Below, in pieces: positions 3,501 to 54,189 of a DNA stretch of 64,000 nt. Origin of the DNA: Rhizaria sp. SCN 62-66 (Eukaryota); contig MEDY01000026.1 of assembly GCA_001724265.1 (NCBI GenBank), forward strand, positions 1 to 64,000, in the 5' to 3' direction. Made by a program: the position numbers and the translations under genes. The notes under the pieces were generated by a model. It worked only from the letters and a program-made list of their open reading frames with translations. It made no database searches and was not told where the DNA came from. Every line of letters starts with the position of its first letter. Position 1 is the stretch's first letter.

Positions 3501-6500
3501 AGCGCGTCCGCCTCCGTCGCCGCGGGCTGCGAGCCGGCCGCCGCGCCGCCCGCGGAGAGCGCGCCCGCGTGCGCGCCGCCGCCCAACGCCGACGCGAAGA
3601 GCGACGGCTGCGGCGACGGGGCCGCGGGTGACGTCGTCAGCGTTCGGCCGCGCACGCGCTCGACGATTTTCTCAGTATCGCTCACAGTCGCAGTCCCGCG
3701 CTGCTTCTTGCGGTTGACGTAGCGCGTGACCGTGCGCGTCCATGCGACCTGCGTGGGCGCGGGCAGCCGCGCCGCGTCGTCCGCCGTGCGCGCCCAGTCG
3801 AACGCGGCCGCCCACATGCCCTGCAGCGCCGCTGCGTCGGCAAGCGCGAGCGCGACCGTGACGGCGCCGCGGTTGTGGTCCCAGGCCAGCAGCAGCGCGT
3901 CGATGAGCGCGCGCGGCGGCGAGTCGAGCCGCAGCTCGCTCATGGCGCCCAGCAGCCCCGCGGCTGCGAGCTGCGGCGGCCACGACGAGCGCGCGCGCAG
4001 CAGCGCCCACGCGCGCGCCGACTGCGCAAACAGTCCATGCGACATAAGTGCGACGGCGTATTCGGAGATAAACGGGAGCGACGCCACGCCGGCGGCCAGG
4101 GCAGCGCCGTCGCCCCCGTGGTCGTGGTCATGCTCGCTGCTGCCGGCTGCGGCCGCCGCGGCGGCAACGGCGGCCGCGGCGGCCGCGGCTGCCTGGGCGG
4201 CGGCGTCGGTCGGCGAGACGCCTGCGAAGGCCCCGCGCCGGCGGCTGTGGGCCGTCAGCGGGGGCTCCGGGAGCTCGTCCAGATCTTCGCTGAAAGTAAG
4301 CCGCGTGACCGTGCGCAGCGAGTGGCGTGCGCGCACGGCGACCACGGTCAGCCACGGCCACTGCACGGTGTTTGCGAGCAAACCAACGCGATTCTCAGTC
4401 TCATCACCACGGTCATTAGCAACACTGCTTGAAGCTGCAGGGTGACACGCGGCAGCGTGGCGGCGGCAAAACGCGACCGCAGCGGCGACCGCGACAGCTG
4501 CAGCCTCCGCCGCGTCTGCGCCCGCAATAGCCAGCGTTCCCGGCGCACCTGCGTACGCCGCGGCGGGCGCGACGGTGACTGGCGAGTCCAACGGCGCGGT
4601 GCGTGTGATGGCGCGGCCGTCAGGCGGTAACAGAGAGAAAGACGGCAGTGGCAGACCGAGCGACACAGTCACTGAGCGCACCGGCAACGCAGTATGCGTA
4701 GTGGTGGCATTGCTGCTCTTGCTCTTGCTGTTCTTGTTGGCGTTTGAGTTCGGGGAGAGCGGCATGGAAGCGGGCACGTGCCAGCTCCACGCCGTGCGCG
4801 CGACCCGCCGGTGCGTCACAGTCGCGGCCTGCGGACACCGCAGCGTGAACAGCGGCGGGACGCCTCCGTCGTGTTCTGCGCGGTGACGCAGCGCAACTGC
4901 AACATCGTCGCTACCACTTTCATTGCCCTCAACCGCACTCGCGCGGTCAGTTGCGCGGCTTGACTTCGCCGCTGTGGAGCCGGCGTCAGCGGTCATGAGC
5001 ACGAGAGGGTCCACAGTGCACATCTCGAGCGCGACGGCACCGTGGCCGACGCCCCAGCCGCGCCGCAGCCGCCGCAGGTGCGCGCGCAGCACGCCGCCGT
5101 TCGCCACGGTCTCGGCAAAAGACGACGAGAGCGCGGACCGCAGCAGCGCGCTCGCTCGCACTAAGGGAGTATTTGCAGCAGCTGCAGTGCCATTGTTTGC
5201 CTTGTGTGCAGTAGTTGAAAGATGCGAATACAGTCGCTCCAGCGCGCGCAGCGACCCGTCTTTGCGGTCGAGATTGCGACTGCTACGAGAGTTATCGTTG
5301 CCATTGTTATGATTCACGGTCACCGTGGCCGTGAGTGGCGTGCGGTGGCCGGGGCTCGCCCCCAGCGCCGCCGCCGCCGAGGCGCCCGCGCCTGCGCCGC
5401 CGCCGCCGCTGCCGCCGGCGACCGTGGCCAGCGACGCGTCTGCGTACGGGTCGTACGCGGCGCTGCGCAGCCACGTGCCCGTGGCGTCCAGGGCAAGGGT
5501 GAACACAGGCGCGAGTAGGGCCTGGGACCGAAAAAAGGGCCGGGACAGCGCGGCGGCGAGCGGCAGCGGCGGGCGCGGGAGTAAGCGCGCGAGCGCGGGC
5601 AGAGAGCGCGCGGACAGGCCAGAGGCTGTGCAGTTTGACACACTGGTTTTGCTAGATTTAGCGGTGCTTGTTGGTGCCAGTGGCGGTGAGCAGGTGGAGG
5701 AGAGGTGCGAAAGCAGAGGCAGCGCAAATTCGTGGGGAATCTCCCAGAATGAGGGGAACTTTGAGGCAAAACGCGTGAAAAACGCCTCTGCACGCGCCTG
5801 CCATTGCGCACCGCGGGGGCTCACAGTCACGCGCTCACTCACAGTGTTGTGCTTTGCCGACTGCTGTTGCTGCTATTGTTGTTGCTCGGCATTCTGCTGC
5901 TTAGCATTGGGTTTCAGGCCAGAAGCACTTAGAGCGTCGCTGTGCGAGTGCAAGTGCAGCGCTGTGAGCGTGGTGCGAGTGACCGTGAGCACGCCACGGG
6001 CCGACACACCCCACTGCTGCTCCCAGCCAAGGCTCGCCACAGCCACAAAACCGGTGGGAACAGTGCTCGCGCCGTCAGACTTAGCGTTCGCGCGTGTGTT
6101 GTTGAGAACGTTTTGGCTTTGGAGCGAGAGTGTGTACGCCTCCCCAGAGTGGGTGTGCCACAGCCTGTTGTCAAGCAGTAGCGTTGTCGTCGCAGCTTCA
6201 GTCTCAGCCTCAGTGCCGCCACCAGCACGCTGCGCGCGCTTGCGCTGGGCAGTGCCGGTGGGCGGCGGCGCGGAGACTGGGGCGGGTGCGGTCAGCGAAT
6301 GGATGCGCATATAGCCTTGGAGGAACACTAAAAGTTCGGGACTCGGGCTAATATAGTAAAAGAAAGACAAATTTGTTGCGTTCAGAGTCGATGCTTAATT
6401 GTAGTTAAGAGAAATATAATATTGTAAATGCGAGGTGTTTAAGACGTACTCGTAAACATCGATGGCGAAGCAGTCCGCTGCTTTGGCTGCCGCGGCAAGC

Positions 6501-8122
6501 ACCGTGGCCGCCTCCGCCGCCGATGAGCCTTGAAACGCGCTGGCGTCGGGCGGCAACGAGCCTGTGAGCGCGCCGCCCTCGAAGGCAACGGCGGCGCAGA
6601 GCAAAGGCGCGTCGGGGGCGACCGTCACTGAGACGGAGTGACCGTGAGCAGACACCGTCGCGGCAGCGCCCCCACCGGCGCCAGCGGAAGAGTCGGCACT
6701 TGAATCAGGGTCAGAGAGAGGGGGTTGGCTCTCGTTGTTATGCCCGCGGCTGCGGTGACTATGCGCGCCATTCTCACCTTCACTGCCGCCGTGCCCGGGC
6801 TCTGAGTGACTGTGTGCAGAAGAGTGTTCGTGGTCGTCCTCATCGTGACCGGGAGCGTCATGATCGTGGCCATGGCCATGGCCATGGCCGTGATCGTGGC
6901 CGTGGCCGTGGGCAGCGCCGAGCTCTTGTCGCCACAGCCCGTCCCGACTCCACGCCACAGTGTCGATGACATTTTTAGGAACCATGACCTTCGCAGCCAT
7001 CCCTTGAGGATCACGCCTAACATCGTCTTTGTTCTTATTAGTGTTACTAGCCCCGAATAACCGCATTGCGCTGATCTTGCGCGCCTCTGCCGCGGCCAAG
7101 TTCGCACTGACAGCGGCATTAACCGCGCTCGCCGCGGCAGCAGGGCCGTAGCTGCTCACAGCTGCCTCAGCCGCGGCCGCCACCGCACCTGCCTCCGCCT
7201 CCGCCTCGACCGCAGCGGCTGTAGCGGCGACGGCGGGCATGTAGTAAACCGCGATCGCATCCGGTTGGCCGCAGCGGCGGCGGCGCAGCGGGCGCGCGCG
7301 CACGGGCGACTGCGCGCCCTTGGCCGCGGCCCAGGAGTCGAAGTTAGGCCGCGTCGACCAGGAGGTGGAGAGGTCGGCGAACGCGTTGAGAAGAGATGTA
7401 AACAAGGACGGATGATGACCGTTGTCAGTTGCTTCAGTGACAAAGTGGTACGTCTCCGCGTCAGTGTTCTCGTTGGGGAAAAGAGAGTCGTCGTCAGTAT
7501 CACCGTACAGTTCGATGTCATCTTCGCCATTTACAGCATCATTAGCATCGGTATTGTCGTTGTTTGGAGAGCGCAAACGGGGCCGCGGGTCACCGGCACA
7601 GGGCGCGTCGCAAGCCGAGGGCGCAATCGCGGTGGAAAACGCCGGGTCGGGCCCCGGGGCGGCGCCGCACACGCACGCGTTGCCGGCGTGAACACCGGCC
7701 CAGGGCAGCGCGAGCGCGGCACAGAAGCGGCCACAGCGCGCGAGCGTCAGCTGCGGCTGCGGGCCCGAGTGCGCGAGCGACAGCGGGAGCTGGTGGGGAA
7801 GCGCGGAAGGGTCGACGGAGAGACATGAACGAAAGAAGAGACGCGGGAGCGGTGTTGCCGTTGCTGTTGTCTTTGATGATGCAGCGAGGGTACTTGCTGA
7901 CTCCCACCAGGGCTTGGGAAGGGATACAGGAACGGGTGAGGCAAGTGACGCAAAGCTTAGAGTAAAACGCTCCGGGATAATTTCGCCAGAGTGTGCTTCA
8001 GCAAAATAAATCCATTGTGTAAGCAGGAGCACAGCGAATGCGAATGCTCCGAACAAGTTGCAATGGTTGGATGGTGCGGGCGCGGAAACGGGCTACTGTG
8101 AGGAGTGATTTGACACCGCCAT
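589..8122 (-). CDS. Large type I membrane protein (~2,443 aa): N-terminal hydrophobic segment, WSC carbohydrate-binding domain, His-rich tract, possible TPR-like helical region, C-terminal TM helix; 3 exons, two in-frame TAG
   Basis: Exons 8122-6450, 6347-2028 and 1927-589 with phase-consistent GT-AG introns (6449-6348, 2027-1928). ATG at 8122 is in frame with ORF 6395..8056 across TAG 8095-8093. ORF 5873..6370 continues in frame across TAG 5875-5873 into ORF 2006..5842. WSC-type Cys pattern: C..LTLARCGRFC..WAGVHAGNACVCG..CDAPCAGD..CG..AIAVY. TM segment LGALIWALGLLAAMLAAAVGMCMW followed by RARK. Ends TGA. Confidence 0.75.
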
Positions 8123-9478: not shown

Positions 9479-12400
9479 TTAGTCAGTCATGTCAACACCG
9501 CCACCGCCACCATGTGCACTCACGCTCGCATTCGCACTGGCGCTTGCGCTTCTGTTGTCTGCGCTACTAACGCCATTGGCGGCGTTGGCGCCTTCGATCT
9601 TCACAGCGACGTCGCTCGCATCCAAAGCTGCAAACGTGGCCGCGGCTGTTTCTGCGGTCACGGCGCCGGGCACGGCTGACGTGTCCACGTCCACGACTGC
9701 GCCCGCCGCTGTCGGCGCCGTCGCCGCCACCGCAGTCGCCGCCGCAGTCGGAGCTGCATTGCCACCCACACTCGCGCTGGCGCTCGCACTCAAACTGGCA
9801 CTGGCACTGGCACTTGAGCTAGAGTCACTGTGGGCGTTACCAGCGCCAGCGTTGTCGTCTGTCATAGGACTGATGCCACTGCGCTCGGCCGCCGTCGCCG
9901 TCGTAGCAGCCCCCGCAGCCCCAGCATCCGTCGCAGCGGCAGCAGCAGCTGCAGCGGCCGCAGCGGCTTCCTGCCTCTGCTGACGGCGCTGCCGCTTCTG
10001 CAGCTGCAGCTGCTGCTCGCGCTCCTGCTCCTGGCGCTGCTGCTGCGCCCACAGCGAGTGGTCCGTCTCGACGTGCGGAACGAAGTGGGAGCGCACGTGA
10101 GGCCGCTGCACGAGCGGCGTCGGGTACGCCGGGTTCGGGTCGCTGGGGTCCGTGTCGAGCTTGAAGTACGACACTATTAGCACGGGCAGCCCCGCCGAGG
10201 AGAAGTCGATCGCGCCGCTGCCGCCGTCCCTACCGCCGCCCGCCGCCGCCGCCGCCGCCTCTGCGCCGGAGCCCGCGGCGGCGTCGGCGGTGCGGCGCGG
10301 CGGCACGTAGTCGAGCCCCAGCCCGTTGCGCGCCGCGACCGGGTCCGAGAGGCGCACGTCCTCTTCCAGAGAGGAGAAGACCAGGTTCTGTGTCTCCAGG
10401 AGGTTCATGCGCTCGCCCTGCGCGTTGACCAGCGCCGTGCGCAGAGACATGTGCGACGAACCAAGGAAGCACGCCTAAACGATATAAAAAAAACAACAAA
10501 ATATGATTGTTAGTGAATTAAAAAAAGAGAGTGAATCAAAACGATTAGAAGTAGAGGAAAAGTAAAGAGTATCGATAGTTGACATTGGAGCATTTTAACG
10601 TACCTGAATGAGTTTCATGTTGTTAGCGCCGTTCTCGGGCGGGTACACGCGGCCCCAGCGGTAGGCCGAGCCTGCGATATTGCTGAGCTCTTCGAACGAG
10701 TAGCCAAGCATCTCCGCCAGCTTGTGGTTGGCGTAGAACGGGCATCCGGCGGGCCGCAGCACGACGACGATGCAGCCGTATTCGTGTTCACGCAGCGACT
10801 CGCACTCAGCCACCAGGTGCGTGAGCGCGACCTGGAGCGGGTTCACCTTACCGAACGCCTTGAGCGCCGCCGCGTTGGAACTGGGGTCCGCGCTGGCGGC
10901 GCGCAGAGCCATCACGGCGGCGGGCGAGAGCTGGAGCTGCTGGCGGCGGAACTGCTCCATGAGGCGCAGCGAGTCAAGTCCGCGCGCCCAGGAGCTGGCG
11001 ATCGACGCGGCGGGCCCGATCGACCACACATCGGAGCCCATGCCGAGGTTGACCAACACCGACGACGTGAAGGACGCCGAGTTGAAGGACGGTAGCCGGA
11101 GCCGGACGCCCGAACCGCCGAGGATGACGTTGCCGATGCGCAGCGACGGCGAGAGCAGAGCGCCGTGCGACAACACTGTGCGGCCCGTGGCGTCCATGCC
11201 GAGCCCGACTCGGAGCGCGAAGTTGAAGAGCCGCGACGACGACGTCAACGACGCCGCCACTTCGGCCTCCTCTGCCTCGGCCGCGGCGGCGTCGGTCACG
11301 GCGGCCTCGGCCATGACCACCGCGGCGGCGGCCTCCGCAGTCGCCGCGTCGCCGCCCGCCGCCAGCGCCGCTGCGCGCGCGATGTCTGCGCGCGCAAGCG
11401 ACTCGGCCTTGCGCTCGGCGTGGCGTAGGAGCAGCAACCGCTCAATGCGCATCGCGGCGGCCGAGGCGTAGTACTCTGCGATCGACGCGCCGACGCAGCG
11501 CGCGACCGAGTAGTCGCCGGGGACGGCCGTGGCGGTAGGGCCCGCGGCGTAGGCCGCCTCGATGCTGCGAGGCAGCCGCACGGGCGCGGGGCCGCCCCGT
11601 TTGCCGAAGGACTTACCAGACTTGGACTTGACGCCCTTCTGTCCGTCGGTGCTGTAGCTGCGGCTGCGCGGGGACGATGATGAAGACGAAGACGCACTTG
11701 ATCTAGCGGCTTTGCCGTTGTCGTCGTCGTCGCTGTTGTCGTCGTCACCGTCGTTCATCTCACTGACGCTGGCAGCGGGCGCCGCAGAGTCAGCGCCATC
11801 AGTCGCGCTGGCACTGGCGCTGGCGCTGGCACTAGCGCTGGCACTGCTAGATGAGCTGCTGCTTGAAGAGGACTCGTAATCATGCTCTTGCTTGACACTG
11901 GCACTGGCACGAGCACGAGCGCCGCTGTCATTCTCTGCGTCAAAGTCAACCTCCGCACTGTCAGCGTAAGAGTCGTCTTCGTTGTCATCATCGTCATCTT
12001 TGCCATCGTCGTCGTCATCATCGTTGGCGCAGTGCTCAAGCCCGCAGAGGTCGTCTAGCGGCCGGTTGTCCTTGGTCAAGAGCACACGGAAGCGCGCCGT
12101 GTCGTCGGCCGGCTCCACGAGGTGCTCGATGCCGAGCAGCACCGTTGCGTTGCCGGCCGTCGACACCAGCATCAGCGCAGACGGGGATGCCGCTGCGGTC
12201 GGGGAGCCGACGACCGCTGGCGCAGGCCCCGTCGTGCTCGAAGTTGACGATGGGTTGCTTCCGCTCACGCGCACAGAGCCAGCAGCAACGGCGCTGGCCG
12301 CGGAGGCGCCAGCTGACCCAGGACCTGCGTTCACGCCCACCGTCGAGGTCGAGGTCGAGAGCGCCGCGTTGACAGCGCCCGCGCCGCCCGTTGCAGCGCC

Positions 12401-14448
12401 CGCGGCGGAGGCGGCAACGGCAGCGCTGTTGGACTTGTTGGCGAGCAGGAGTCGCTGCATGTGCGGCGGGACGGTGTTCGCGCCCGCAGCCGCGGCTTTA
12501 TCGCCGTCATCGTCGTCATCGTTGTTGCTGCGGGTTTCGCCGTTGCCGCCGCCGACGGCAAGACTGGCCAGCGAGGGCGGGGGTGTCGTCGGCTTGACCT
12601 TCTCCACGGCCACGGCCGAAAGTGCGCTTGGCTCGAGGTGCTTCGGCTGGAACCGCGCGTGCATCATCACCTTGACACCCAGCGCAGTCTGCGTGCGCAC
12701 GACGCTGAGGTACGTGCGCATGACCTTCTGCACGAACGCGACCTGGGTCTGGGCCGGGTAGCCGCCCTGGAAGGTGGAGGCCGACAGCGCGGCCGCGGCG
12801 GCGTGCGCGTAGTCGTCGTTGTCAGCGCCCTCATTCTGCGCGTTAGCGGCGTTTTCGTCCGCAGCCGCGCCATAAGCATCGTAGTGCTCCCGATGCTGCT
12901 GCTGCTGCTGCTGTTGCTGAAGTAGCATGTTTTGCTGCTGCCGTTGCTGCTGGGGGTCGAGCTGATCGACACTCGCGTCAGCCACAGAGATGGGCGCGGG
13001 TGCAGGAAACGACTGGGACACCGCACTGCTGCTGCTGTTGTTGTTGGCGCTATTGCTATTAGCGTTGCTGCCGCCACCGTAGAACGCGAGCGGCGGCGGG
13101 ATCGTCGTCGCGGACGCGAGCGAGAGGTCGCGGACCAGGCTCTGCGCCTCGAGCCGGCGCGCGTCGGGCATTGTGGGCGTGAACTGGTACCCGCCCAGCT
13201 GCCGCAGCGACTGGCCGCCGCCGCGCACTGCGCTCGTCGGCGCATTCGCGTTGTTAGCGCTGTTGTTGCCGCCGTTGTTGTTGCTGTTGTTGTTGTTGTT
13301 CATGTTGTTAATGTTGACTGCGGCAACGCGGGGCCCCGCCGAGTTTGACGCCGCAGACACAGCGGACACCGCGGGTGGGAACAGATGGCCGGACGAGGCG
13401 GCCGAGAAGGACGGCCTCTGCAGCGGCGAACCAGCCGACTGCGGCCCCGGCGCCTGCCGCGCGCCGAGCTGCGGCGTCATCAGCAGCGGGTCCAGGAAGA
13501 ACACGGGGTCGGTGCCGCCGCGCAGAGGACCGAAAAAAGATACTAACGAGGACTGGTCGTCGATGGCGTCCTCGTAGCCGGCGCGCATGACGCTCGCGCA
13601 CTGGCTCTGGCTCTGGCTCTGGCCCTGCGCGGGCGCGGGCGGGTGGAAGTGGGCGTGACCTTGGGCGGCGCTGGAGTGACCGTGGGCAGCGCCGGAGTGA
13701 CTGTGGGCAGCGGAAAGTCTCGCCCCCTGGTGGCTGGGGCCCTGAGGACTGTAAATCGAGCTCGATGACCGCACGCTTGTGCTGCGGGCCAGCGTCCTCC
13801 CACCGACGCCCGCGCAAGAGGTCAAGCCGTCATCGTAGGGAAGCGCCCCGCTGTTGCTCCTGCTCCTGCCTCCGCCGACCTCACCAGCTCCAGTGCTGCC
13901 ATTGCCGTGGTCAAGCGGCAGCATGTGGCTGAGCGCCGACGCCGCCGCCGGCCCGCGCGCGTTGCGCTGTGCGCACGCCTCGTCGGTGCATAGCTCGAGC
14001 CCCAGCGTGGAGGCAAGCGCAGCCGAGGCCTCGCTGCTTGTCCCGACGCCCATCGCGGCGGCCGCGGCGCTGGCGGCGGCGGCGGCGAGCGCCACCGCCA
14101 TGGGCTGCGCGGCGGCCGACGTCCCGCCCGCGCCGGCCAGTGCGGCCACGGTCCCGGGTGCGGGCGCCGACAGGGTGACCGGGGAGACGGAGGAGGACCG
14201 CAAGCGCGCGACAGAGAGCCCGTCGAGCGAGGTCTGCACGAAAGACGGCAGCGAGGACACGAACGTCTCGCAGTGCTGCAGGCTGCCGTAGCCCGTGCCG
14301 GGCGCGTGGCCCAGCGCGTGGTTATGGTTGTGGCGAGCGGTGATGTTGATCACCGTGCTCTCGTTGCTGTGCCGCGCGGTGTCGTGCGGACTTGAGAACA
14401 GCGTCGATTGCGACTGCGACAGAGACAGCGACAGCGGCGCCGAGATCA

Positions 14449-14482
<34 letters not shown>

Positions 14483-17400
14483 TTGCTGGCTGTGACCGAG
14501 ACCGAGACTGGTGGTGTTGTGGCTATGGCTGCGGCTGTGGAGCAGGTCCGGAGGGGCGTTGATGAAGGGGTCGTTGCTCGTGCCGATGTTTTTGTTGTTC
14601 ACAACCACAGTCGGGTAAGAAGACATCTCCGGGAACTGACCCTGCTGATACTGTAGCTGCTGTAGCTGCTGTTGTTGCTGGAGTTGTTGTTGATGCTGCT
14701 GTTGCTGCTGTTGAATCATGAGCAGCCGCTGCTGTTGCTGCTGCTGTTGTTGCTGCAGCAACACCATCTCGTGCTGCTGGCTCTGTTCATGCTGCCGCTG
14801 TATCAGCAGCAGCTGCTGCTGTTGCGCCTCGGCCACCGCGGCCTCGGGCGGGTACACTGTGGTGCGTTCCCAACCCGGCCCCGCCTTGGACACCGGCAGC
14901 GTGCGCGCCAAACTGCTGCCACCATCAACGCCAAGCTGGTGCTGCTGAGACTGAGGCTGAGGCTAAGGCTGAGCTTGCTGTTGCTGCTGAAGATGCGACT
15001 GCTGCATTTGATAGTTGTGCTGCATGTGCTGCTGTTGCGCGCACGCCATCGAGACGTCCTCAGACAGCGCTAGGTGCGGCGCAGACCGGCGCTCGATCAC
15101 CAGCTCCATGCGCATCGAGTTGCTGACCTCCTTGGGCGTCAGGTACACGGGCGTCGGCGCTGGCAGCGCAACGGGCGGAGTTAGGAACGCGCACGTGATC
15201 TCAACAAGCCCCGAGATGAGGCGTTGCATGCGCATCAGCATCGCCGGCGACGGCGCCGCGCCGGGCGGCAGCAGACTGGAGAAGAGGTCGTTCACGTCAA
15301 CGGCCGTCGGCGGAGCTGACTCGGCCGCCACAACGCCGTCGGGGCCCGCGAGGTCGAGCACGTTGTTGGCGTCCGCATCGTCCGCGGAGGCAGTGGCGGC
15401 GGCTGTGGCGTCCATGGCGATGTCGGAGGCCGTGCGGTGCATTGGACCGGAGGTACGCTCGGCGGCGTCCGCTGCTGACAGAGCGGCGGGAGCGCGGGAG
15501 TCGCCGTCGTCCATCGCGATCAGGGCAGTGCCGGCGCCGTTAGCGGCCGCGGAGAGCCCTGCTGAGGCGATAGCGGCGACGTCGGCGGCGCTGAGGCCGT
15601 TTTCATCGCGCGTGACCGCGTTTGAGGCAGAACCGCCGCCGTTGCGCACAGTCGCGTTAGTGATACTCTGATACCCGTGACTCGCGCTTGCGGTGCCGGC
15701 GCAGGTGAGAGGCACAAGGCGGTTGTCGCTGCTTGCGGTTCCGCGTCCCGCGGTATCTTTGCTGCCCAGGAGCGTGATCATCGCACGCTGCGCCGCGCCG
15801 CCGCCGTTGTTGACCGCAGAGCCCGCAGTCACGGCGCCGCTAGCCCCAGAGCCCGCGCCGGCACTGCGACTGCGGCTGTGGCCGGTTGGCGGGAGGCTGC
15901 CCGTGTCGATGACGATGCCGGGCACGGTCGCCGCCGCGGCCTTGGTGACCGCGGCGACGACCATGAGAGCATACGTGCGTGCGTAGGCCTCGGCCTCGGC
16001 CGCCGAGATGAGCGGCTCCGGCGGCTCTGCGGCGGCCGCGGCGGCGGCGTCCACTGCGGCGACCGCGGCCGCCGTCAGCGCCGCCGGAGAGCTCGGGTCA
16101 GCCGCTCCGGCCGCGGACGGCGACGGGGCCAGCGCGGAGGCCGCGATCGCCGCAGTGAACGCGCTGCTGCTGCTGCTGCTGTTTCTGCTGCTATTGCTGC
16201 CGCCTGAGGAGCCGGCGTCGGCGTCGTCAGGGGAGGCGTTGGCGGCGGCTGCTGCTGCTGCTGCTGCGGCGGCGGCGACAGTGCTCTTCTGGTAGCGCAC
16301 CGTCTCGTACAACACCTTGACCGCCTTGGTGCCGACCGCTGTGCCCACTGCGGTGCCAGCGGCGGCGCCAGCGGCGGCTGCGGCGACAGTGCAGGGGTTC
16401 AGCACCACGGCGCCGCCGCTGGACTGGGGCCGACTGCCGCTGGAGGGCTCCGCCTTGACGCGCGCACCGAAGCCAGCTGACGCTGAGCCTGACGCTGAGC
16501 CAGAGCCAGAGGCGGAGGCGGAGCTAGAGCCGTGTGCGGCGATGGGGGTGATGTCGGCGCTGGCGACCGTGGGCAGCGGGAGCTGCGTCAGCGCGTCACC
16601 GACACTGCTGTCGCCGCCGGAGCTCGGGCCAGAGCCCGTGCCAGAGCCAGAGCCAGTGCCAGCGCCAGAGTGACCATGAGCAAGACGACTGCGCTTTGCT
16701 TCGCGAGTCAGCACATCGGCCTCAGCGGCATCGGCCTCACCGTGACCCTCACGGTCACCGTTGCCGTTGCCGTTGGCACTGTGACCGAGAGACGAAGCGC
16801 TGGGACTCGCGGTGGAGACTGGTGACGTAATGAACGCAGCAACGGCGGCCGCGGCCGCTGACAGGGGGTTCTTGCTGTTGCCGCTGCCACTGCCACCGCC
16901 GCTGCTGTTGCTGTTGCTGGCAGCAGTCTTGCTAGCGGCGCTGACGCCAGTCGCGAGCGAGAGTGCGGCCACGCGCGGCGACGACACAGGTTCAGTTTTA
17001 ACGTGCACGCCACCAGCGCCCGCGCTGTCGTCGTCGCCCAGCGCAGTCGCATCGGCGTTCGTCTCCGCGTCGTCTGAGGCGTTGGCGCCAATGCTGGTGT
17101 TGCTCTGCGCAAGCTTCTCCTGCATTCGCAGTAAAACCTGCCTGATGACGGCAAGCGAGCGCGACTGCTCGGCCTGGTCGGAGCTCCGCAGCAGCGCCAG
17201 CAGCTCGCGCACTTGTGCGGCGGAAGGCATACCGGCGCGGGCGCATTCCTGCTCACATTTCTCGCGGTCACGCTCATCGACATTTTCACTTGCACTCGCG
17301 CTGGCGCTGGCGCTTGTGTTGTCGGCCTCAGTCTTGGAAGCAGTCTCAGTCGCACCCGCGCTCGCGCCACTGGAGCCGCTGCCACAGCTTTCATTGCCGC

Positions 17401-19147
17401 GGTCTGCGGAGATCGCGTTGGCCAGCGCGGCCACGGGCGCCCCGGGGCCCGCGCCGGCCGACGCCAGCGCCAGCGCGACGAGGAGCTCCGACATCGTGGT
17501 CGCGTTAACCAGCGCCTGCACCGCCGCCGTCGTCGCCGACAAGGGCGCGAGCAGCGTCAACGCACCGCCACCGTTTGCACCCACACTGTCGATGGTACTT
17601 GAGTCAGCGCCCGCGGAGTCCTCAGCCTTGACGTTGGCGTTGGAGTTAGCGTCAACAGAACCGGCGCTCTCGCTGGGGCCGAACAGCAGCGACGCCGCAG
17701 CGGCCGCAACCGCGGTCTCGGCGGCGTAGCGCATGGTGCTCTCGCCGCCTTCGCGCTGCATCACGCGCGCCACGATCTCGAGCTGCTCGCGCCGGGTCAG
17801 CTGCTGCAGGTGCCTCATAGCCGCCGCATTTGCCTCGGCGTCGGCGTCGGCGTCGGCGTCCGTATCGGCCTCGTCCGCGGCCGCGTCAGCGCCGTCAGCG
17901 GCGGTGTCGGCGCCGTCGGCGGAGTCCTGCTGGTTCGACTTAAGGCCGGCAATGAACGCGTATAGCCGCGAGTAAACGTCGTCGTTGCCGTCGATTCCGT
18001 CAGTGATGTCGGCGCCGTCGCTCATTTCGACCGCGTGGCCCGCGCTATCGCCGGCGGAAAGCGGCGGCTCGTCGCTTGCGATGTTGTTTAGGGCACTGTC
18101 GCGTTCGCTGCGGCCGGCCTCTGTGTCGGACGCGACCTCCCGCGCGTGCGCCTCGATCGACGCCGACGCCGACAGCAGCGCGGTGACCATCGCAGCGCAC
18201 GACATGTTGACGGCGTCGGCCGACGCGACGTCGCTCGTAGCGACGGCGCCACCGACAGACACGCCCGGGCTGTTTCTATCGCTGATACTGCTGCTGCTGC
18301 TGCTGGAGTTTCCGCTGTTTGCCGGCGAGCTAGCCGAGTACGACGCGGAGGTGCCGCCACCGTCGCGGTCACTAATGCGGTCGCGCTCGCTGCTGCGGGC
18401 ACTGGACTGCCGAGAGTTCGCGCGCGAGAGATCGGACGCGGACGCCGAATCGCTGGCGGTTCTGCTGCCAGAGGACGGAGTCCCAGCCACACTGCGCCCA
18501 CCAACTGAGCCGGCACCGTTGGAGCCAGACGTTGACTCGGAGGCCGAGACAGAGGTTGAGCTCAGGCGCGAACAACTGCCGCTGCCATTGCTGCAACTGG
18601 CGCTGACGCTGACGGCGCGCGAGTTAAGCGCCGTCGCCGTCGCAGCGGTCGCAGTGTTGGCGGCGAACGTGGTGGCGCCTGAGTTCGGCCCCGACCCCGG
18701 CCGCGAGACCGTCCCAGTGCTCGCAAGAGCGCCGACGCCAGTGCTCGTGCCGAGAGCGGGGCCCGTGACGGCGCTGCTGCTCCTGATGGCGCCGAGCGTG
18801 ATGGCGGGGCCGGAACGCGTGACCCCCGTGGCGGTGCGCGCGACGGCTGACGCCGCGGCGTGCACCGACGCCGACACCGCGGGCCCCAGCGCGGACATGA
18901 ACGCCGTGACGTAGGCGCCGGGCGCGCCGCCCTCGGTCATGCCGGCGTTCAGACCGGCGGTCACGGCGTTGTTGACGCCGCTACTCGCGGAGCCCGAGCG
19001 GGAACCCGGGCCGGAGCCGGTGCCGGAACCCGCGAGGGAACCCGTGACGGAACCGGTGAGTGCGAGAGAGCCGGCGCTATTGGGGGTGGTGACAGAGCTC
19101 GACCGCGCGCTATTGAGCCCACTGTTGGGGCCACTGCTGCTGTGGCG

Positions 19148-19195
<48 letters not shown>

Positions 19196-22100
19196 GACGA
19201 GTTGGAGATACACGAGTTGGTGGGATTGGTACTGAGCTGTGCGCACGGCGGGGGTCGGCGGCTTCATAAAGCCTCCAGAGCCGATTGCCCCAGCGCCAGA
19301 GCACGAGCCAGATGACCCCGGTGAGGAGGCGGCCCCAGCCCCCTGCGCCGCGTCGCCGACGATGATGCTCGCGGCCGTGGCGGCCGACATCGCCGCCACG
19401 GCCTCGCTGGCGGGCGCGAGCTTGCGCTGCTGCTGCTGGGACAGCTGGAACGCGCGGGATAACAAGTCAGCGCGAGCAGATCTGCTGCCGCCGCCGCCTT
19501 GCTGCTGCTGCTGCTGCTGTTGCTGCTGCTGGTGCGCGTGCGCCGCCGCGGCGGCTGCGGCGGCAGCGGCGGCGGCGGCGGCGGTGACGGCGATTGTGCT
19601 CGTGCCGAGACCCTCGCTCTTGACGCTGGAAACAACGCTAGCGCCGCCGCTGTTGCCTGCACTTGAGTAGCCACTGCCGCTGCCGTTGCTACTCGTGCTG
19701 TGGAGCAGGGTCGTCGTGGAGCTGGTCGACCCGGGGGCCGAGCGCGGGGGCGGCGACTGTGACCTCCCGCCGAGTGACTGCGAGCTCGCGCTGAGTGACT
19801 GTGAGCTCGACAGGGACAGGCGCGACTGGTGACCGTGGGCAGCTGCCGAGTGACCGTGAGCAGCGGAGTAAAGCGGCTGTTTCGCGTTGCCCGTGTACGG
19901 AGAGAGGCCGACCACACTCGGCGACTTCCCCTGCTGCTGCTGCTGTTGCTGCTGCTGGAGAGAGCCCGCGAGCGGCGAAGAAGGTGATGGCGATTGCGCG
20001 CGCCCCATCAGACACCCGCCGCGCTGCAATGCATTCACACCACCGCCACCGCCGCAGCTGCTGAGGCCGGGGCCAGCGCCGGCGCCGGCGGCAGAGGTTG
20101 GGTGGTGGCCGGCGGAGACTGCGGCGGCGACGATACTGGCCGAGGTTGAGGCCGCGGTTAGCGTGCGGAGCACCTGGGTCAGCGGTTCGCGAAAAATCGA
20201 TAAAGAGAAACAACAGCAGAAAAGATGAGAGAATATTGAATTGATGCGATTATAAGAGCGATACAGGTAAGAGTTGAGCGTCAAAGCAAGATACAGTTTA
20301 GAATAGGCATCCATATGAAAAACTGTGCGCTTTGTTGCGTTATAGCGATGCAAAAGTGCGTACCTGTGCTTGGAAAGGAGTCTGTGCCCCCAGCCCCGCG
20401 ACACCGGAACTGGGTCCGAGTCCGAGGCTGCTGTTATTGCTGATGTTGCTGATACTGTTGATGCTGTGCGCGTTGGCTGCGTGCAGCAGCGGCGTCGACA
20501 GCGCCTGCGACTGAGACTGAGGGAGCGACGACGGGTGCTGGTAGTAGGCCGACGCCGACAGCGACGACGGCAGCTGCGCCTGCACCTGCGCCTGCAGAGT
20601 GGTGGCGCCACCGATCGCGCTGACGGCCGCGTTGCCGCTGCTGCTCCCTGCGGACGCGGGGGCAAACGAGGGCGATAGCGCGCTCGCACCAGAACCAGCA
20701 GCAGCAGCGGCGGCGACGGCGGCGGCGGCGGCGGCGTTAGAGCCGACCGTGGTGTTGCTGTACTGGCCGACCGCGTTGCCGTACTGGCCCGATACGATGT
20801 TGGCGATGGTGTTGTACTGCGAGTACTGCTGCAGCCGCGGTAGCGAGGCCGGGGTGGCCGGCAGCGAGGACCGCGAGTTGGGCGCCGACGCCTCCTGCGG
20901 TACCCCTTGCGGACCCCCATGCGTTCCGCTATGTGTTCCCCCATGTGTTCCGGCGTGCTGGTTCTGGGTGTAGTGGTTCTGCAGGGCGAGCGCCATCGTC
21001 GTGTTGTGAAGCGTTTTGTGGCGGTGCATCGCAGACATGAGCGAGGACACGTGCTCGTCGACGCTGGCGGTCACGGACGACGATGATGACATTTCGCTAA
21101 TTCCAGAGCCGGCGCTGGGGCCGAGAGCGCCGGCCGCAACGGAGCCGTTCCCACTCGCCCCGGCCAGACCGGCCATTGGGGTGACGCCAGGTGCTGCCGC
21201 GGCTGAGGGGGAGTTGCCCCGCGGCAGCAGCTGACTGTGGGCAGCAGAGTGACCGTGAGCATGATTGTGAGCATGACTGTGGGCGAGGGCGTGACTATGC
21301 GCAGCGGCCGCGATGGCTGTGGCGCGGTGGCGGCCGCCGGCGGCTGTACCGAGAGCGTAGTTGTTGCCGGCCGCGGCGTTGGCGGTGGCGATCACGGCCG
21401 CTGCTACACTGTTCACGCCCGGGAAGTTTGAACCAGAGCCAGAGCCAGAGCCGGCGACTGTATTAGCCGCGCCGGCACCGGGGCCTGAGATGAGGACAAC
21501 ACTGGGGGCAGGCGCGGCGGCGCCAGGGCCGCCAGCGGACTTGAGCGATGCGTGGCCGTTACCGTTGATATTGCCATTGAGACCCGGGCCTGAGCCTGGG
21601 CCCGAGGAGACCGGGGTGCGCACAGCGACGCCGCGCACGGCCGTGGTCATCACCGTGTTGTTGACGGTGGCCCCGGCGGCCGAAGCACGGGCGGCGGCGG
21701 CGGAGGGCGCGCGCGCGGCGACTGCGGCGGCCGCGGCGGCCGTGGCGTTGACCGTATTGTGGTAAAGTAGGAGAGCAGCGTTGGCGTTGGCCTGCGACAG
21801 CGACTGCTGCGAGCCCGGAAGGTGGCCGCCGTAGCCTGCCGCGCCGGAGTGCGCGAGTTGGTGCGCTGGGACACGCCACAGGAAGCGAGCGGCGAGTGGG
21901 CGAGAGAGCCGGAGAGGGAGAGAAATAGAGACAAGCACGTGAGGAGGGGGGCGTAAGGCGTGGCAGAGCTCGGTGATATATGATCAAGTCGGTTCAAGCC
22001 TTGCGAGAAAACATAAGAAGAGCACGGAAAAATATAAAACAAGAACTACGCTAGGCACAGATGTGGCCGCTAAACGGTGAGTGTACGAACCTGCGGCGAG

Positions 22101-37585: not shown

Positions 37586-37629
<44 letters not shown>

Positions 37630-43822: not shown

Positions 43823-45518
43823 TTAGAGCTCATCGCGGGGCATCTTGCCGTCCCACTTCTGCGTCTTGGCGATCGCAGGCAGCTTGCTGACCGAGATGAC
43901 GCTCTCGCGGCCCGAAACGAGGCGGTCGACGAAGGAGCTGATGCCATCGGCGCTGAACGAGCCCAGCATAGGCGCGAACTTGCCCTTGGCGACGTTGACA
44001 GCCGCCAGCGCCGGGTACCCCGCGCCGCCGACCTCGAGCGCCTGCTCCAGCGCGCTCTGCCGGTTGCCCTGCGCCCAGACCCAGCCGACCGAAGAGCGCT
44101 TGAGCTTGGCGGCGGCCTTGGTAAGCTCGGCGATGTACCCGTTGCGGCCCTCGATGCCAGAGTCGAGCACGTTGGGCAGGAACGCGACGACGCAGAGCGT
44201 CTTCTCCGCGCAGCCGTCGAACGTGGACTGGTCGACCAGCTCCACGGGGGTCGGCGCGGGCGTGTGCTTGTCGGCTTCATTGCTCACGTAGGTCACGATG
44301 TCACTCGCCGTGCGGCCGCCGTTGTAGTCGGAGGGCTTGCGCTTGTCGCCGTAGCCGAAGACCTTGACGGTGGGGTAGCCGCGGACGTCGTACTTCTGGC
44401 ACAGCGACTGGTGCTGCGTGCAGTCGACGTTCGCGAGGTGCGCGGTGCGGCCCTTAAGCTGGCGAGCAGCCTGTTAGCGGTTAGAGAAGAGGAAAGTACG
44501 AATAACAGAGACAGAGACGATATGTAAAGTGAGGTGTTGACGGATATGGGCGTTTTAGAAAATAATTTCGTAAATTATCACTATACAGGAAGTACATGAA
44601 CACTATATAGCCCCAATAGTTTCTTAAAGCAAGACTAAGACGTGTGTTTTGATGAGTTGTAGCAGTTGTAGCAGTGCGTACCTGCGAGTACTCGGGCTTG
44701 AGGCGCTGGCAGTGGCCGCACCAGGGCGCCGTGAACGACACAAGCCAGAAATCCTTGGAGTTCATCACCTTGCTGTTGAAGTCGCTCTCGGTGAGCTCGA
44801 TGACGGAGCCCGAACCAGCATTGGAGGAGCCAGCGCCGTTGTTGCTGCCGTTGCTCGAGCCGGAGTCCTTAGACTTGGAGCTGGAGCTGGAGCTCGAGGC
44901 GGAGGAGCCGGAGGTCTTGCCGGTGAGGCGGCCGGAGACAATGCTGCGCGCCTCGCGGAGGGCGGCGTCGGCGAGGCCCTTAGCGTTGCGCTCGCCGTTG
45001 TAGTCGGCAGGGCTCTTCTTGTTGGCGCCGAAAACCTTGATCGTGGGGAAGCCCTTGACCTAAGCAAGAAGAGATACCAAGACAAAGAGAATCGATTTAA
45101 GGATTGAGCGTGAGAATCAGGATACAGCTAATAGGATTCAATACAGGAGTCTCCATGTAATTCGCCAGACGTGGATATCATGAGACATATCGTTGATTTC
45201 GGGAGTATTCGGATGACGAACCTGGAAGCGGGAGGCCAGCGCCTCGGCCTGGGTGGCGTCAACAGCGCCGACCTTGACGATGCCCTTAAGCACGGAAGCA
45301 GCCTTCTTGTACTCGGGCGCAAGCGATACGCAGTGGCCGCACCAGGGCGCGAAGAACTCGACGATCCACGGGTCAGGGGAGTTCGCGACGAGGGAGTCGA
45401 AGTTGGCGGCCGTGAGCTGCACGACGTCGTCGCCGGAAGTGTACAGCGCGTGGGCCGCGCCGGCGAGGAGGAACACGACCGCAAGGGACGCAATGCGGAG
45501 GGCGCGGGAGAACAACAT
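43823..45518 (-). CDS. PDIA6: Protein disulfide isomerase, P5/PDIA6 type (~440 aa; 3 exons)
   Basis: Exons 45518-45222, 45059-44682 and 44470-43823. Signal peptide followed by LYTSGDDVVQL; two APWCGHC thioredoxin sites; GFPTIK and GYPTVK; a non-catalytic b domain; ER-retention RDEL then TAA. Confidence 0.93.
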
Positions 45519-46165
45519 GCGCGCGGGGATGCTGGTTCTGCAGAGGGGATGAAGCAAAAAAAATAAGTGCCGAAAGAGGCGTGTGAGTGTGACTGGAAAG
45601 ACGGTGAGAGAATGTGCGAGTTTGCGAGCGGGCGCCTCAAAAAAATAAGGGTGAAAACAAAAAGGCAAGTAGCTCGGGGTTCGTAAGCACGCAGTTGCAG
45701 CGTGATCGCGGTTTGAGGCGCGGCGCTGGTAGAAAGTGAATGTGCATAGGCGGTGTGCTGACGTAAGCACAGCGACCGCAAACATGCCAATCAGAGCGAG
45801 TTACGGCGCAAGAGCGCGTATAACAATTGTCAAGCAATGTAAGCGCGCACATGTTCCGGTCGAAAAAGATTAATACTTGACAGCGAACGATCGATATCGG
45901 CCCTAATCACGATCGAGAAGTGGTCGTCTTCGCGATCAAATCTGTCCCGACAACTAAAAATTGTTTTTCATTTTTTGCGAACCTACTAGAGTTCGGAGCT
46001 TCCACCACCAACTTGTTTCGCTCATTTTGAGAACGCATATCTCGATACAATGACCGTCAAGCGAGATCCTGCGATCTTTTCTCGAAAGTGTCACCACTTG
46101 ACAATACTCACAATTCTTAACGCTTGAACAGCCGCGCGTTACACCTACATCCGCCCGAAACTCCG

Positions 46166-46564
46166 ATGACTAGGTTACAGTGCTGCCACAGCTCCGTCAA
46201 GATAGCCACTCGCGGCGTGCCAGCAGCCTCCTCGATACTTTCCCGCATTTTCTCTGCACCTAAGGCTACCCCTGCAATCTCTTCTCTTCTTGCACGGGGC
46301 AGCGCCGCTTCTGATTCTTACAGGCAGGTACAACACTCGCGCCAGCACCAACCGCAGCTTGCCACACTGAGCAACGCATGCTCTCTCATCACTCCTCTTG
46401 CCGAGACGCAAAACACTGCAGCTGTCACACCGCTCGCTGTTTTCAATGATGCCGCTACTAGTGTGGTTGCTTCAGTAAAGACATCAGCCGTAAAGGACGA
46501 GTATGCGCACTTGAACTTGGTGCCGGTCGACGTGTTGTTTGGCACGCCTGCACCTGTCGCAACA

Positions 46565-46619
<55 letters not shown>

Positions 46620-47074
46620 CGATCACAAACAACAACACCACGAGCAGCAGCACAAGTGGCAGCGGTGACAGCAAGACGACACCTGTAGCTGCTGAGCAAA
46701 AGACATCGCAAACAACTCCTGCTGCGACTCCAACTGCTGCAGCAACTGCAGCCGCTACTCCTCCTGCTGTTGTTGCGTCTGCAACCGGCCTTGACGCTGC
46801 TGCAACTGCTGCGATCGCCGCAGCGGCCGCGGCCGACACGGCCGCCGTGAGCGACTCCGTGCTGTCCCCTGCAACGGCGTCGTCCGTGGCCGCAGCCGTC
46901 GCGGCCGCTTCCCCGCCTATCAATGATGATGGCTGGCCGGTGGATGTCGCCACCGGCGCGCCGCTGGAGCCGGAGCCGTGGCAGTGCTGCGGCAATGACT
47001 GCATCAACTGCGTGTGGATCCAGTACGAAGAGCAGGTTAACAAGTATAAGGATGCACTCGCAAAGCGCAGGTGA
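46166..47074 (+). CDS. OXLD1: Oxidoreductase-like domain protein (OXLD1/UPF0651 family), probable mitochondrial (~302 aa)
   Basis: C-terminal PLEPEPWQCCGNDCINCVWIQYEEQV matches the P-x-CC-x-x-x-C-x-x-CVW motif. First in-frame ATG at 46166. A (GCA)15 polyAla tract lies at about 46571-46615. Ends TGA. Confidence 0.82.
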
Positions 47075-47871: not shown

Positions 47872-50800
47872 ATGGATGTTTCTGCGACCGCAAAGGCTCT
47901 CCAGGCCGATGTGTTGCGTCTTATAACCCCACATGTTAACCCCGAGACACGCGCATTCATCGCCACCTTGCGCCGCGCTGTGCGCACAGTCGAGCTCGTG
48001 CCGGCAGATATCATCGCCACCGCACCTAGCGTTTTTTCGCTTCCGCGTGCGCCGTCTCTTAAGGATCTCTCGTCATCCAACTCCACGCTGCGCAGGGCTA
48101 ACCTGGCGCGTTTGGCGGCGTACGCGAGCATTTCCGTGCACTTGCACGAGTACATTGACGACGTCTGCTGCCGTCACTACTGGCCCACAGGCGACGGCTT
48201 TTGGGCCGAGAGTGACAACGACGGCGGCGGTGAGATTGTTGCCGAATTCGCGTTGCCTTCGGACAACCACGAAGAAAATAACGACAAAAACATTGACGAG
48301 GGCGATGGCCAGGAGGATGAGGACGGCAACGACGAGAACAATGCGAACGGTGATGTTGACGGCGACAACGCCACAGAGAAGAGCTCAGCAGAGGCCAATC
48401 CTGAAGGTGAGAAGGCAAAGGAGGCCACCGCGTCTGATGCTGATGAGGGTTCCGATCCCGATGTTAGCACTGAAGCTACGCCTGCTGCAAACGTTGCGTC
48501 GGATGATGGTGACGGCGACACCAAGAGTGGTAACGACTCTGCGGACGCTGTTGCTGAGGATCTCACTGCTGACCTTGCGTCAACGCTTGAACACCGCGCC
48601 AACACAGCCTTGAAGGGCGGCAATGTCCGCCGTTTCTCGTAGCTGATGTTTCGCCACTGCTTCACCGCATGCTTTGAGCCCTATTTCCCCAGCAGCGGCA
48701 GCGAACACAGTACTGCTGCTTTGTGCACATGCGGTCTCAACTTCTGCGACTCATCCTCATCCTCGTCCTCATCCTTGGACTTGGAGTCGGAGTCAGAACC
48801 ATCGGAGCCGCGCCAGACTCTGTCTTCGGTGCTGCTGCCGCTGCTGTACAGCCCGTCGCGCACCGACGCCGCGCTAGCCGCGATCGCGCTACACGGCATC
48901 CTGCGCGCCGCGCCCACGCTCGACGCGCGCGCGGGGCTAGCCAACGGCATCGCACAGGAGCTGCTCAACGTGCTAATTGCGGTTCCCGTGGCGGCGAACC
49001 CGATCCTGGTTGACCACGCCGCGCGCGCGCTGCGGTACAGTCTCGAGAGCAGCACGTTAGCACATCTCACCGTCTTCGCGTGGCAGAGTCCTGTGCAGCT
49101 CATGTTCGACATGATGCTGGAGGAGAACTGCACCCAGGGCGGAGTTGAGACAACGTACGTGGCGCCAGAGGGCGGGTACTACAAGGGCGCAGAGGACACT
49201 GGCGACGGCGCACGGTGGCGGTCACCGCATGACGAGAAAATCCCGCTGTTTCCGAGCTCGTTTGACAATTGCTACGAGATCGAGCTTCTCGGCTGCATTA
49301 AGACGGCGCTTACGGCGATTCCGTGTTTTAGCAGCACTGGCGGCTGCGACAATGCGTCCGGCTCGTTTGCATCTTCTTCCGACACGTTTGCGTTCGACCT
49401 GTTCAGCAAGGCTGTCGGGTCCCTGCTCAGCGTGGTGACGGAGTCGATTGAGTGCATGAGCTCGCAGATTGACATCATGCCGCTTTTGCTCGAGCAGGGC
49501 GCTATTAGTACTCATTACGCGATGACGCGCTGTGCTGCACTGTTTCTCGAGATCGCACCGCTAATTCCGTCTCTTTTTCACGCCCTCGTTGGCACGGATG
49601 TGTACGCATATGCATCTACAACGGACGATAAGAACACCAATGCAAGTGAAAGTCGCACTGGCAAGAGTGCTGGCGCTGTGACTCTGAGCAAAGAAAAGGC
49701 AATCGAGCGTCTGCGTTGCGTGACGAAGCTTATTCGCCAACCGATCCGAGTCCTGAACAATTATTCGTCCAACCTTGGCATGAGCATGCCCTACGAGAGG
49801 CCGTACCACATCGACAGTCTTGCTTACGGCCAGCGCGACAACCGCGCCCCGTGGGCTGTGTTTCCGGACATGGAGCCCGCGTGGCGTGCGCGCCTTCAGG
49901 CCGCCGTGGCCGCGGTCAAGCGCGGGCTGCCGCGCGCGATTGCGGCGCAGCTGACCGCGGTGCAGCGCGAGGCGACGCAGACTCTTGCGGACCACGAGGC
50001 CGCCGTCGCAGCGTATAACAAGCGCAAGGCGAAGCAGGCGGTTGCTGCGCAAGACGGCGACGATAGCGACGACACTGATCACGAGACCGCGGAAGATGGT
50101 GCTGGGACTGATGATGATGACGACAGTTTAAGCGGATATGGGCTGTTTGACGATGATGAGTCGCTGCATGACGACAGCAGCGAGAATGGCGACAGCAGTG
50201 GCTTCTCAGCTGAGAAAGTGATAGATGACTACACTGCGCGCATGGCACACGAGGCTACGCAAGAAGCTGACGCGCCCCCCGCGAGCCCGCTTCTCCACCT
50301 CATTTTCGAGTCGTCGGGCGCTCTCCTTGCCTCGTTCCTGCCGCTGGCAGAGCTGTTGCCGCGCTCGGAGTATGGCTTCTTTGTGCGCGACTATGTTATT
50401 GGCAGCGAGATTTACACCGCCTTAGAGGTCTCTGCCCCCGGTGATCCGAACTGCTTTTTCATGCGCCGCGCAGCTGTGACACGCGGCATGCTGTCGCTGG
50501 TGTCACGCCTCGCGTCTCCGCGCATGCTGTCCATGGGCACCACGGTCATGGCCAAGGCGTTGCTGTTCGTGGACGCTGTTGCGAGCAGCGGTGCTCTGTA
50601 TCCGGCAGTGCGTGGCCCGCTGAAGGGCGACGACGCCCGTGCGCTGCGTGTGTGGACCAAAGATGGCGGGCCCATGTCCAAGGGGCAGGTGCAGGCTGTC
50701 CGGTTCTTTTCTCCTCCCACAAACGATCGGGAGGCGCGCGAAGGAACACAAGGGACCGAAGCGATGCTTGTCTCACTGCTTTCGTATGAGAAACTGCCCG

Positions 50801-54158: not shown

Positions 54159-54189
<31 letters not shown>

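Follow-up and report, generated by a model that had tools for sequence, protein, structure and literature searches.

In-frame UAG codons in a GC-rich eukaryotic contig point to a nuclear code in which UAG is probably read as glutamine and UAA and UGA are stops

In NCBI genetic code table 15, TAG specifies glutamine. According to excerpts of two papers, nuclear codes that give UAG and UAA different meanings are few, the examples being Iotanema, one rhizarian, Scotinosphaera and some ciliates (PMC5304391, PMC11687900). The same excerpts assign UAG alone to glutamine in Iotanema spirale, Protocruzia tuzeti and two phyllopharyngean lineages, to leucine in the rhizarian exLh and some ciliates, and to serine in Scotinosphaera; UAA is kept as a stop in exLh and Scotinosphaera (PMC5304391, PMC11687900). 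Described here is a 64-kb stretch of contig MEDY01000026.1 (Rhizaria sp. SCN 62-66; positions 1 to 64,000, hereafter the window), in which six TAG codons interrupt five genes (Table 1). In-frame TAGs within long coding frames, one of them in a conserved motif, together with TAA and TGA at the ends of conserved genes, suggest that in this nuclear code UAG is probably translated as an amino acid, with glutamine the best candidate, and is not a regular terminator, and that UAA and UGA end translation.

An earlier note on this DNA had placed six in-frame TAGs in five genes, three of them within glutamine runs and one after a glutamine codon. All six were found where it had placed them (minus strand 5873, 8093, 14963, 31635 and 37616; plus strand 48640), with contexts as described at 5873, 14963, 37616 and 8093. 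The count of five genes also holds, since TAA 6395 lies in a 102-nt intron (6449..6348, GTACGT...TTAG, GC 0.30), so that the WSC-domain frame and the 2006..6394 frame are joined in phase and TAGs 8093 and 5873 belong to one gene, g1. When the standard code is applied, three of 15 frames of at least 400 codons end in TAG; one of these is an antisense shadow of SKI2, and the other two, at 14963 and 37616, run on in frame for 1,455 and 1,735 codons. If TAG is taken as sense, TAG 14963 links frames of 2,036 and 1,456 codons into a single frame of 3,492 codons, and TAG 37616 links frames of 1,851 and 1,736 codons into one of 3,587, each with a single TAG and a TAA end. No GC dip of the intergenic type was seen at 14963 or 37616. 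TAG 5873 is followed by 1,288 open codons (log10 P = -15.2), the nearest downstream in-frame ATG being 283 codons on. The open frames after TAGs range from 886 to 1,735 codons. With an off-frame stop density within genes of 0.0269 per codon, the probability of such a frame past the TAG is 1e-17 at 14963, 1e-20 at 37616, 1e-15 at 5873 and 1e-10 at 48640, and chance cannot account for the open downstream frames.

The earlier statement that the frame continues past each TAG without an AT-rich intron is borne out by the long open frames and by the lack of any viable intron, and rests on gene models at 31635 (a 158-nt exon between introns) and 8093 (codon 10 counted from the best ATG). TAG 8093 sits between the only available ATGs and a signal-peptide-like hydrophobic stretch with the WSC domain; the next in-frame ATG is 284 codons downstream, past that domain, and no GTRNGT donor was found within the 400 nt upstream of the TAG. 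In the model for gene H, ATG 31851 is followed by a 73-nt intron, the exon that carries the TAG, a 106-nt intron and the main frame of 1,282 codons, with the TAG as sole internal stop. This model is the only one that connects a start codon to the main frame, whose own first ATG is codon 389.

Spliceosomal introns in the window have GTACGT donors and YAG acceptors, and the four with both ends placed are 73-129 nt long with a GC content of 0.28-0.49. All seven donors that precede a sharp GC drop are GTACGT (minus strand 31805, 31574, 27683, 26809, 10603 and 6449; plus strand 60026). Several donors have an in-frame stop directly downstream. A scan for introns of the form GTRNGT...YAG, 40-400 nt in length and spanning each TAG, found none at 8093, 14963, 37616 or 48640. 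At 5873 the only two in-phase candidates have a GC content of 0.58-0.61, compared with 0.28-0.49 in real introns, and at 31635 the one in-phase candidate uses the TAG itself as acceptor and would put reading out of the main frame. No plausible intron takes out any of the six TAGs, and the splicing out of TAGs, which the earlier note had named as a possible objection, thus found no support in this sequence scan. A codon census of an approximate exon set gave 6 TAG, 0 TAA and 0 TGA among 15,845 in-frame codons, in agreement with the gene models of the earlier note. The zero counts depend on placing three in-frame genomic stops, TAA 6395, TAA 10595 and TGA 27671, inside introns; all three fall just inside introns with GTACGT donors.

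Nine gene ends in the window were examined (terminators at 2006, 9479, 26150, 32408, 43823, 47072, 51304, 51644 and 61151). Six are TAA, three are TGA and none is TAG, although the sample is small. Homology supports five of the nine, namely the TAA ends of SKI2, RPA1, PDIA6 and gene K and the TGA end of the Oxidored-like gene. The DSHCT domain of SKI2 reaches residue 2672 of 2679, the Rep_fac-A_C domain of RPA1 reaches 472 of 480, and the TAA of gene K lies close to the end of its relative P0087. TAA is a working stop. A code of the table 6 type, as in Amoeboaphelidium, hexamitins and many ciliates, in which UAR as a whole specifies glutamine and UGA alone is a stop, is ruled out, since four conserved genes stop at a TAA where their homologues end and TAA is absent in frame from the codon census. 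TAA is the commonest terminator (6/9) despite an exon GC content of 65-70%.

The TAG at 48640 could be compared with homologues. An exhaustive HMMER search with gene K (47872-51303) returned seven matches. Public standard-code calls from this organism split the gene at the TAG, P0085 covering residues 1-256 and P0084 residues 259-1144. The 725-residue relative P0086 is collinear with both halves (query 7-166 against 18-182, E = 1e-5; 321-683 against 261-628, E = 2e-18), and the pre-TAG fragment aligns collinearly with a profile of P0086 and P0089 (hhalign probability 94%, E = 1.2e-7). Just before the TAG, V252, R254 and F255 are identical in all four aligned sequences; H-C-[FY] comes after it, and the alignment has no gap at the site. 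With homology on either side and the TAG falling within a conserved motif, TAG 48640 lies in a coding region, and the ATG one codon past it is not the true start. The gene for P0089 is present as uninterrupted DNA in contig L002, where it is complete, ends in TAA and has no in-frame TAG. That contig is one of two short ones returned by a scan of contig collections for the gene K family; the main frame of the other, L001, is also free of in-frame TAG. RPA1-anchored scans of metagenome and genome contig collections for the DNA of relatives found none. P0088 was rejected as evidence on gene K architecture, being a tandem-repeat protein that matches residues 64-112 seven times. Its 457 residues comprise seven tandem copies of a 65-residue unit, each resembling a short stretch of the N-terminal domain of gene K.

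Window DNA is partly present in 10 of 12 listed runs from six studies, comprising bioreactor, wastewater and activated-sludge metagenomes; one of the runs may be the source of the sequence. Logan contigs of four runs were compared with a stretch of the window that excluded 5873, 8093 and 14963; low-complexity GC-rich repeats gave hundreds of spurious joints in this comparison. The earlier note had called for confirmation of the TAGs in raw reads; in these contigs, one TAG found independent support, as a DNA contig from a different study (X3 record 1, 31000-32512, 0 differences) carries the TAG at 31635. A further contig spanning it (X4 record 9) has one difference at an unlocated place. At 48640, X5 record 23 ends one base beyond the TAG and is too short to bridge it, and X4 record 16 spans it as a variant that is ~4% different and was not counted for the TAG. 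The X4 variant of gene K (48093-50023) carries 80 differences and 8 gaps in one contig, which suggests that another study sampled a second strain or a sister species. Both halves of gene IJ have matching contigs, free of differences, in a polyA library (X7), although this is not proof of transcription. The summed X7 contig depth is 2,271 at 42339-43005 compared with 0-78 in the other 29 bins, probably through low-complexity cross-matching from other organisms.

As to the residue, three of the six TAGs have a glutamine codon directly next to them, a situation found at 7.7% of positions overall (P = 0.0075) and for 41% of real glutamine codons, and a fourth, at 14963, stands in for CAG in a (CAG CCT)n dipeptide repeat. 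These contexts, CAG/CAA runs and the (CAG CCT)n repeat, suggest that glutamine is most likely the residue, as the most economical reading. The earlier proposal that UAG means glutamine and that UAA and UGA are stops is upheld in its larger part: UAG as sense and UAA and UGA as stops are supported by the frames, splicing, homology at 48640 and terminators, and the choice of glutamine is drawn from codon context only. By analogy with other lineages in which a stop has become glutamine, UAG would be read by a tRNA-Gln, either a dedicated tRNA with a CUA anticodon or a near-cognate tRNA-Gln(CUG), eRF1 would have a weakened recognition of UAG, and new TAGs would arise from CAG by a single C-to-T change. 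Such an origin is proposed as the reason why TAGs sit in CAG runs.

Several observations weigh against glutamine, or against a complete reassignment of UAG. The case is built on six TAG codons within 64 kb. Of 739 glutamine-type codons, 6 (0.8%) are TAG, the others being 564 CAG and 169 CAA (the census also has 24 CGA and 99 TGG), whereas the TTG:CTG ratio of 112:516 predicts ~120 TAG if TAG were a neutral synonym of CAG, so that it is ~20 times rarer than expected. C follows the TAG in five of six cases (5873, 8093, 14963, 37616 and 48640), whereas 24% of codons begin with C (P = 0.004). Glutamine neighbours at three of six sites are only mildly informative, with P = 0.15, if roughly half of all new TAGs are taken to derive from CAG regardless of what the codon means. 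The earlier note had named a residue other than Gln aligned to a TAG as counter-evidence; at 48640, the sole alignable site, the column holds Arg rather than Gln in 3/3 homologues, at 27-28% identity. The pre-TAG fragment P0085 gave no significant match to P0089 alone (E = 2.9), and the homology search across TAG 5873 returned only the organism's own post-TAG fragment, P0214. Among the contig pieces listed, none bridges TAG 37616 and no RNA contig crosses a TAG. Finally, tRNA and Rfam scans of the window found no tRNA and no other Rfam family.

Some of these features could be explained if UAG had a dual, context-dependent meaning, terminating in strong contexts and being read through by a near-cognate tRNA-Gln in weak ones, as an ambiguous intermediate or as programmed readthrough; in codes of the Condylostoma or Blastocrithidia type one codon serves as both sense and terminator according to context. 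A C at +4 weakens termination, and glutamine is a common insertion at leaky UAG. The +4 C found at five of the six TAGs is seen after none of the nine TAA or TGA terminators, seven of which are followed by a purine, and TAG is also scarcer among glutamine-type codons than in Iotanema (excerpt of PMC5304391; figures below). Three of the five +4 C's, however, are a direct consequence of the CAG or CCT repeats around them, none of the nine gene ends is TAG (a small sample, with P ~0.075 if a quarter of stops are assumed to be TAG), and readthrough would have to be efficient to yield proteins of 3,500 residues. Dual meaning is unlikely, even if it is the strongest of the alternatives. The +4 C bias fits leaky readthrough as well as reassignment, and it may reflect a tolerance of sense TAGs that is limited to contexts where termination is weak. 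Reassignment could be incomplete or depend on context, and the low usage of TAG would indicate that the change is recent or that decoding is inefficient. In the codon-capture model, loss of UAG stops is driven by AT pressure; in a GC-rich genome such pressure would not explain the loss, which would favour a route through an ambiguous intermediate. A speculative extension, with about one chance in four, is that this is an early, still ambiguous reassignment in a GC-rich eukaryote that had not been sampled before and may be a heterotrophic stramenopile relative, with UAG read as glutamine at low level, surviving only in +4 C contexts and already gone as a terminator.

That UAG is sense and encodes another residue, for example Arg, Leu, Glu, Lys, Tyr, Ser or Trp, is improbable. 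The Arg column at 48640 and the tolerance that low-complexity glutamine runs may have for any residue would allow it, and lineages with UAG as Leu or Ser that keep UAA as a stop exist according to the excerpts cited (PMC5304391, PMC11687900), but four of the six TAGs lie in or beside glutamine codons, one of them replacing CAG in a perfect (CAG CCT)n unit, and a single Arg column at such low identity says little. Less probable still is the standard code, with the TAGs being real premature stops (nonsense alleles, gene fissions or adjacent genes) or assembly or sequencing errors. The window comes from a metagenome assembly, CAG-to-TAG would be expected here more often than any other nonsense change, TAG 48640 has an ATG one codon beyond it and the repeat at 37616 is bridged by no listed contig. 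Against this, five of about twelve genes in 64 kb would be broken, by TAG alone and without a frameshift or any other stop in the codons of the census, with downstream frames intact for up to 1,735 codons; moreover, TAG 31635 recurs in another study's DNA and the split at 48640 falls within a conserved motif. The earlier note had taken the missing TAA and TGA as an argument against decay, and this argument proved weak, as ~69% of transition nonsense changes give TAG and six of six would be TAG with P ~0.11. The open frames of 886 to 1,735 codons, set against a stop density of 0.027, are the stronger argument. Least credible is the removal or alteration of the TAGs before translation by unusual introns or U-to-C RNA editing: in-frame stops 6395, 10595 and 27671 do fall in introns and an in-frame TAG at 10475-10477 is the end of intron 10603..10475, but four of the six TAGs have no spanning canonical intron and the candidates at the other two are not intron-like or break the frame, real introns are AT-rich with GTACGT donors, 14963 and 37616 lack a GC dip, and homologues align ungapped through 48640.

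The window that carries these TAGs contains no N and has a GC content of ~65% (exons ~65-70%, intergenic DNA ~35-55%). Its genes specify a SKI2-type helicase, the large subunit RPA1, a disulfide isomerase of the PDIA6 type, and WD40, PAC3-like, Oxidored-like and WSC-domain proteins (Table 1). The encoded proteins, the spliceosomal introns and several very long low-complexity genes rich in Ala, Ser and Gln identify the DNA as eukaryotic nuclear. Third-position GC is 0.57-0.87 in the 13 frames checked, and GC periodicity by codon position was too weak to mark coding sequence. The products of genes IJ and DE, of ~3,500 residues each, are mostly Ala/Ser/Gln low-complexity and coiled-coil sequence; no credible Pfam domain was found in either, DE giving no match and IJ four weak matches, one marginally over the cut-off. 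The IJ product also has repeats of the Cys-Pro-Glu-Pro-Val type and hydrophobic C-terminal segments. The start of gene DE is uncertain, with in-frame ATGs at 20944, 20920, 20314 and 20008. Two more long open frames on the minus strand, 20340-21983 and 589-2235 (547 and 548 codons), have no Pfam match; the former overlaps the 5' end of DE in another frame and may represent upstream exon(s) of DE or a separate TAA-ended gene. The SKI2 orthologue, of 2,679 codons, is extended by ~1,090 residues at its N-terminus and carries long inserts, and its relatives are long too (2,253 and 2,015 residues).

Table 1. In-frame TAG codons, the genes that carry them and other genes of the window.
Feature	Position	Strand	Remarks
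TAG, codon 716 of gene g1	5873..5875	-	in CAA/CAG run: CAA CAA CAA TAG CAG CAA CAG CAG
TAG, codon 10 of gene g1	8093..8095	-	CAG directly before TAG
TAG in gene DE	14963..14965	-	at CAG position of (CAG CCT)n: CAG CCT TAG CCT CAG CCT CAG
TAG, codon 48 of gene H, exon 2 (31732..31575)	31635..31637	-	gene model
TAG in gene IJ	37616..37618	-	eight Gln codons, TAG, ten Gln codons
TAG, codon 257 of gene K	48640..48642	+	in conserved motif V-x-R-F-x-[TAG]-x4-H-C-[FY]
Gene g1, WSC-domain protein, 2,004 codons, one intron, ends TGA	2006..8122	-	gene model
Gene DE, low-complexity, ~3,500 codons or more	9479..20314	-	intron 10603..10475; TAA at 9479
Gene H	27671..31851	-	introns 31805..31733 and 31574..31469; probably continues beyond GTACGT donor 27683
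Gene IJ, coiled-coil low-complexity, ~3,546 codons	32408..43048	-	tandem TAA TGA end
PDIA6-type disulfide isomerase, multi-exon	43823..45800	-	C-terminus ...RDEL then TAA
Oxidored-like domain protein	46121..47074	+	TGA 2 codons past domain match
Gene K, 1,144 codons, ends TAA	47872..51306	+	family relatives P0086, P0087, P0089, P0090
SKI2-type helicase	51644..59683	-	TAA 7 codons past DSHCT domain end
RPA1 large subunit, 454 aa	61151..62515	-	TAA 8 codons past Rep_fac-A_C end

The relationships of the organism were approached through RPA1 and SKI2. Among the 80 RPA1 hits listed there is one relative at 64-65% identity (P0005), and the next matches are at 38% or below. For SKI2, considering the best 120 of 8,000 hits, the closest relatives are at 64% and 52% identity, and the named matches are fungi, oomycetes, a diatom and Spongospora (39-65% identity in local alignments covering 13-44% of the query). 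No ciliate was found among either set. An RPA1 tree was built from 33 of the 80 hits, comprising all clearly named ones and some others (47 were left out); in this single-gene, weak tree, which included no fornicate, the window sequence and P0005 group with two environmental sequences as sister to ochrophyte stramenopiles (SH-aLRT 92). Algal ponds are a habitat of aphelids, and Amoeboaphelidium was considered as a source and rejected: its genomes are ~40% GC and are annotated in NCBI according to an excerpt of PMC10608142, compared with ~65% GC here, and TAA is a working stop in the window. The organism is not Amoeboaphelidium, and is apparently neither a ciliate nor a fornicate. The suggestion that it is a possibly undescribed lineage is plausible: its close relatives are all metagenome proteins, and a literature search found no matching report, nor any of a nuclear UAG reassignment in stramenopiles or in eukaryotes from wastewater.

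If true, this would be another independent origin of such a code, from an uncultured organism, and would help to show how UAA and UAG become uncoupled, in this case in a GC-rich genome where UAA is still the main terminator. Genes of this organism already appear in pieces in public protein collections as a result of standard-code calling (P0084/P0085; P0214), and pipelines for eukaryotic metagenome-assembled genomes will mis-annotate them. Should the low usage of TAG and the +4 C bias hold genome-wide, the organism would offer a natural system in which to study reassignment at an intermediate stage.

Ciliate genomes are usually AT-rich; unlike the ciliates in which UAG alone means glutamine, the window has ~65% GC, genes of thousands of codons and GTACGT introns of 73-129 nt. 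The codon table of those ciliates is the same as that proposed for the window (excerpt of PMC11687900). Amoeboaphelidium protococcarum (Aphelida) is alike in having changed a stop to glutamine outside the ciliates (excerpts of PMC6299283, PMC5304391 and PMC11687900), but it is reported to read TAG and TAA both as glutamine (excerpt of PMC6299283), whereas TAA is the terminator at four conserved gene ends here. In exLh and Scotinosphaera, again going by excerpts, UAG is uncoupled from UAA as in the window, and the difference lies in the residue, Leu and Ser respectively, the TAGs of the window standing in glutamine-codon contexts. Iotanema spirale (Fornicata) resembles the window in that UAG alone is reassigned and is a minor glutamine codon in both (excerpt of PMC5304391). 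Its main terminator is UAA (104 UAA, 15 UGA and 0 UAG; PMC5304391, excerpt), as in the window (6 TAA, 3 TGA and 0 TAG). In Iotanema, however, UAG makes up ~8% of glutamine codons, compared with 0.8% in the window, and glutamine was shown there at hyperconserved sites (22/28) and an eRF1 change was found (PMC5304391, excerpt), whereas the glutamine reading proposed here comes from codon context. The two also differ in position, Iotanema being a fornicate and the RPA1 of the window adjoining ochrophyte stramenopiles in a tree without fornicates. Overall, the window probably represents a new lineage carrying a code variant already known elsewhere, in which TAG alone has come to mean glutamine.

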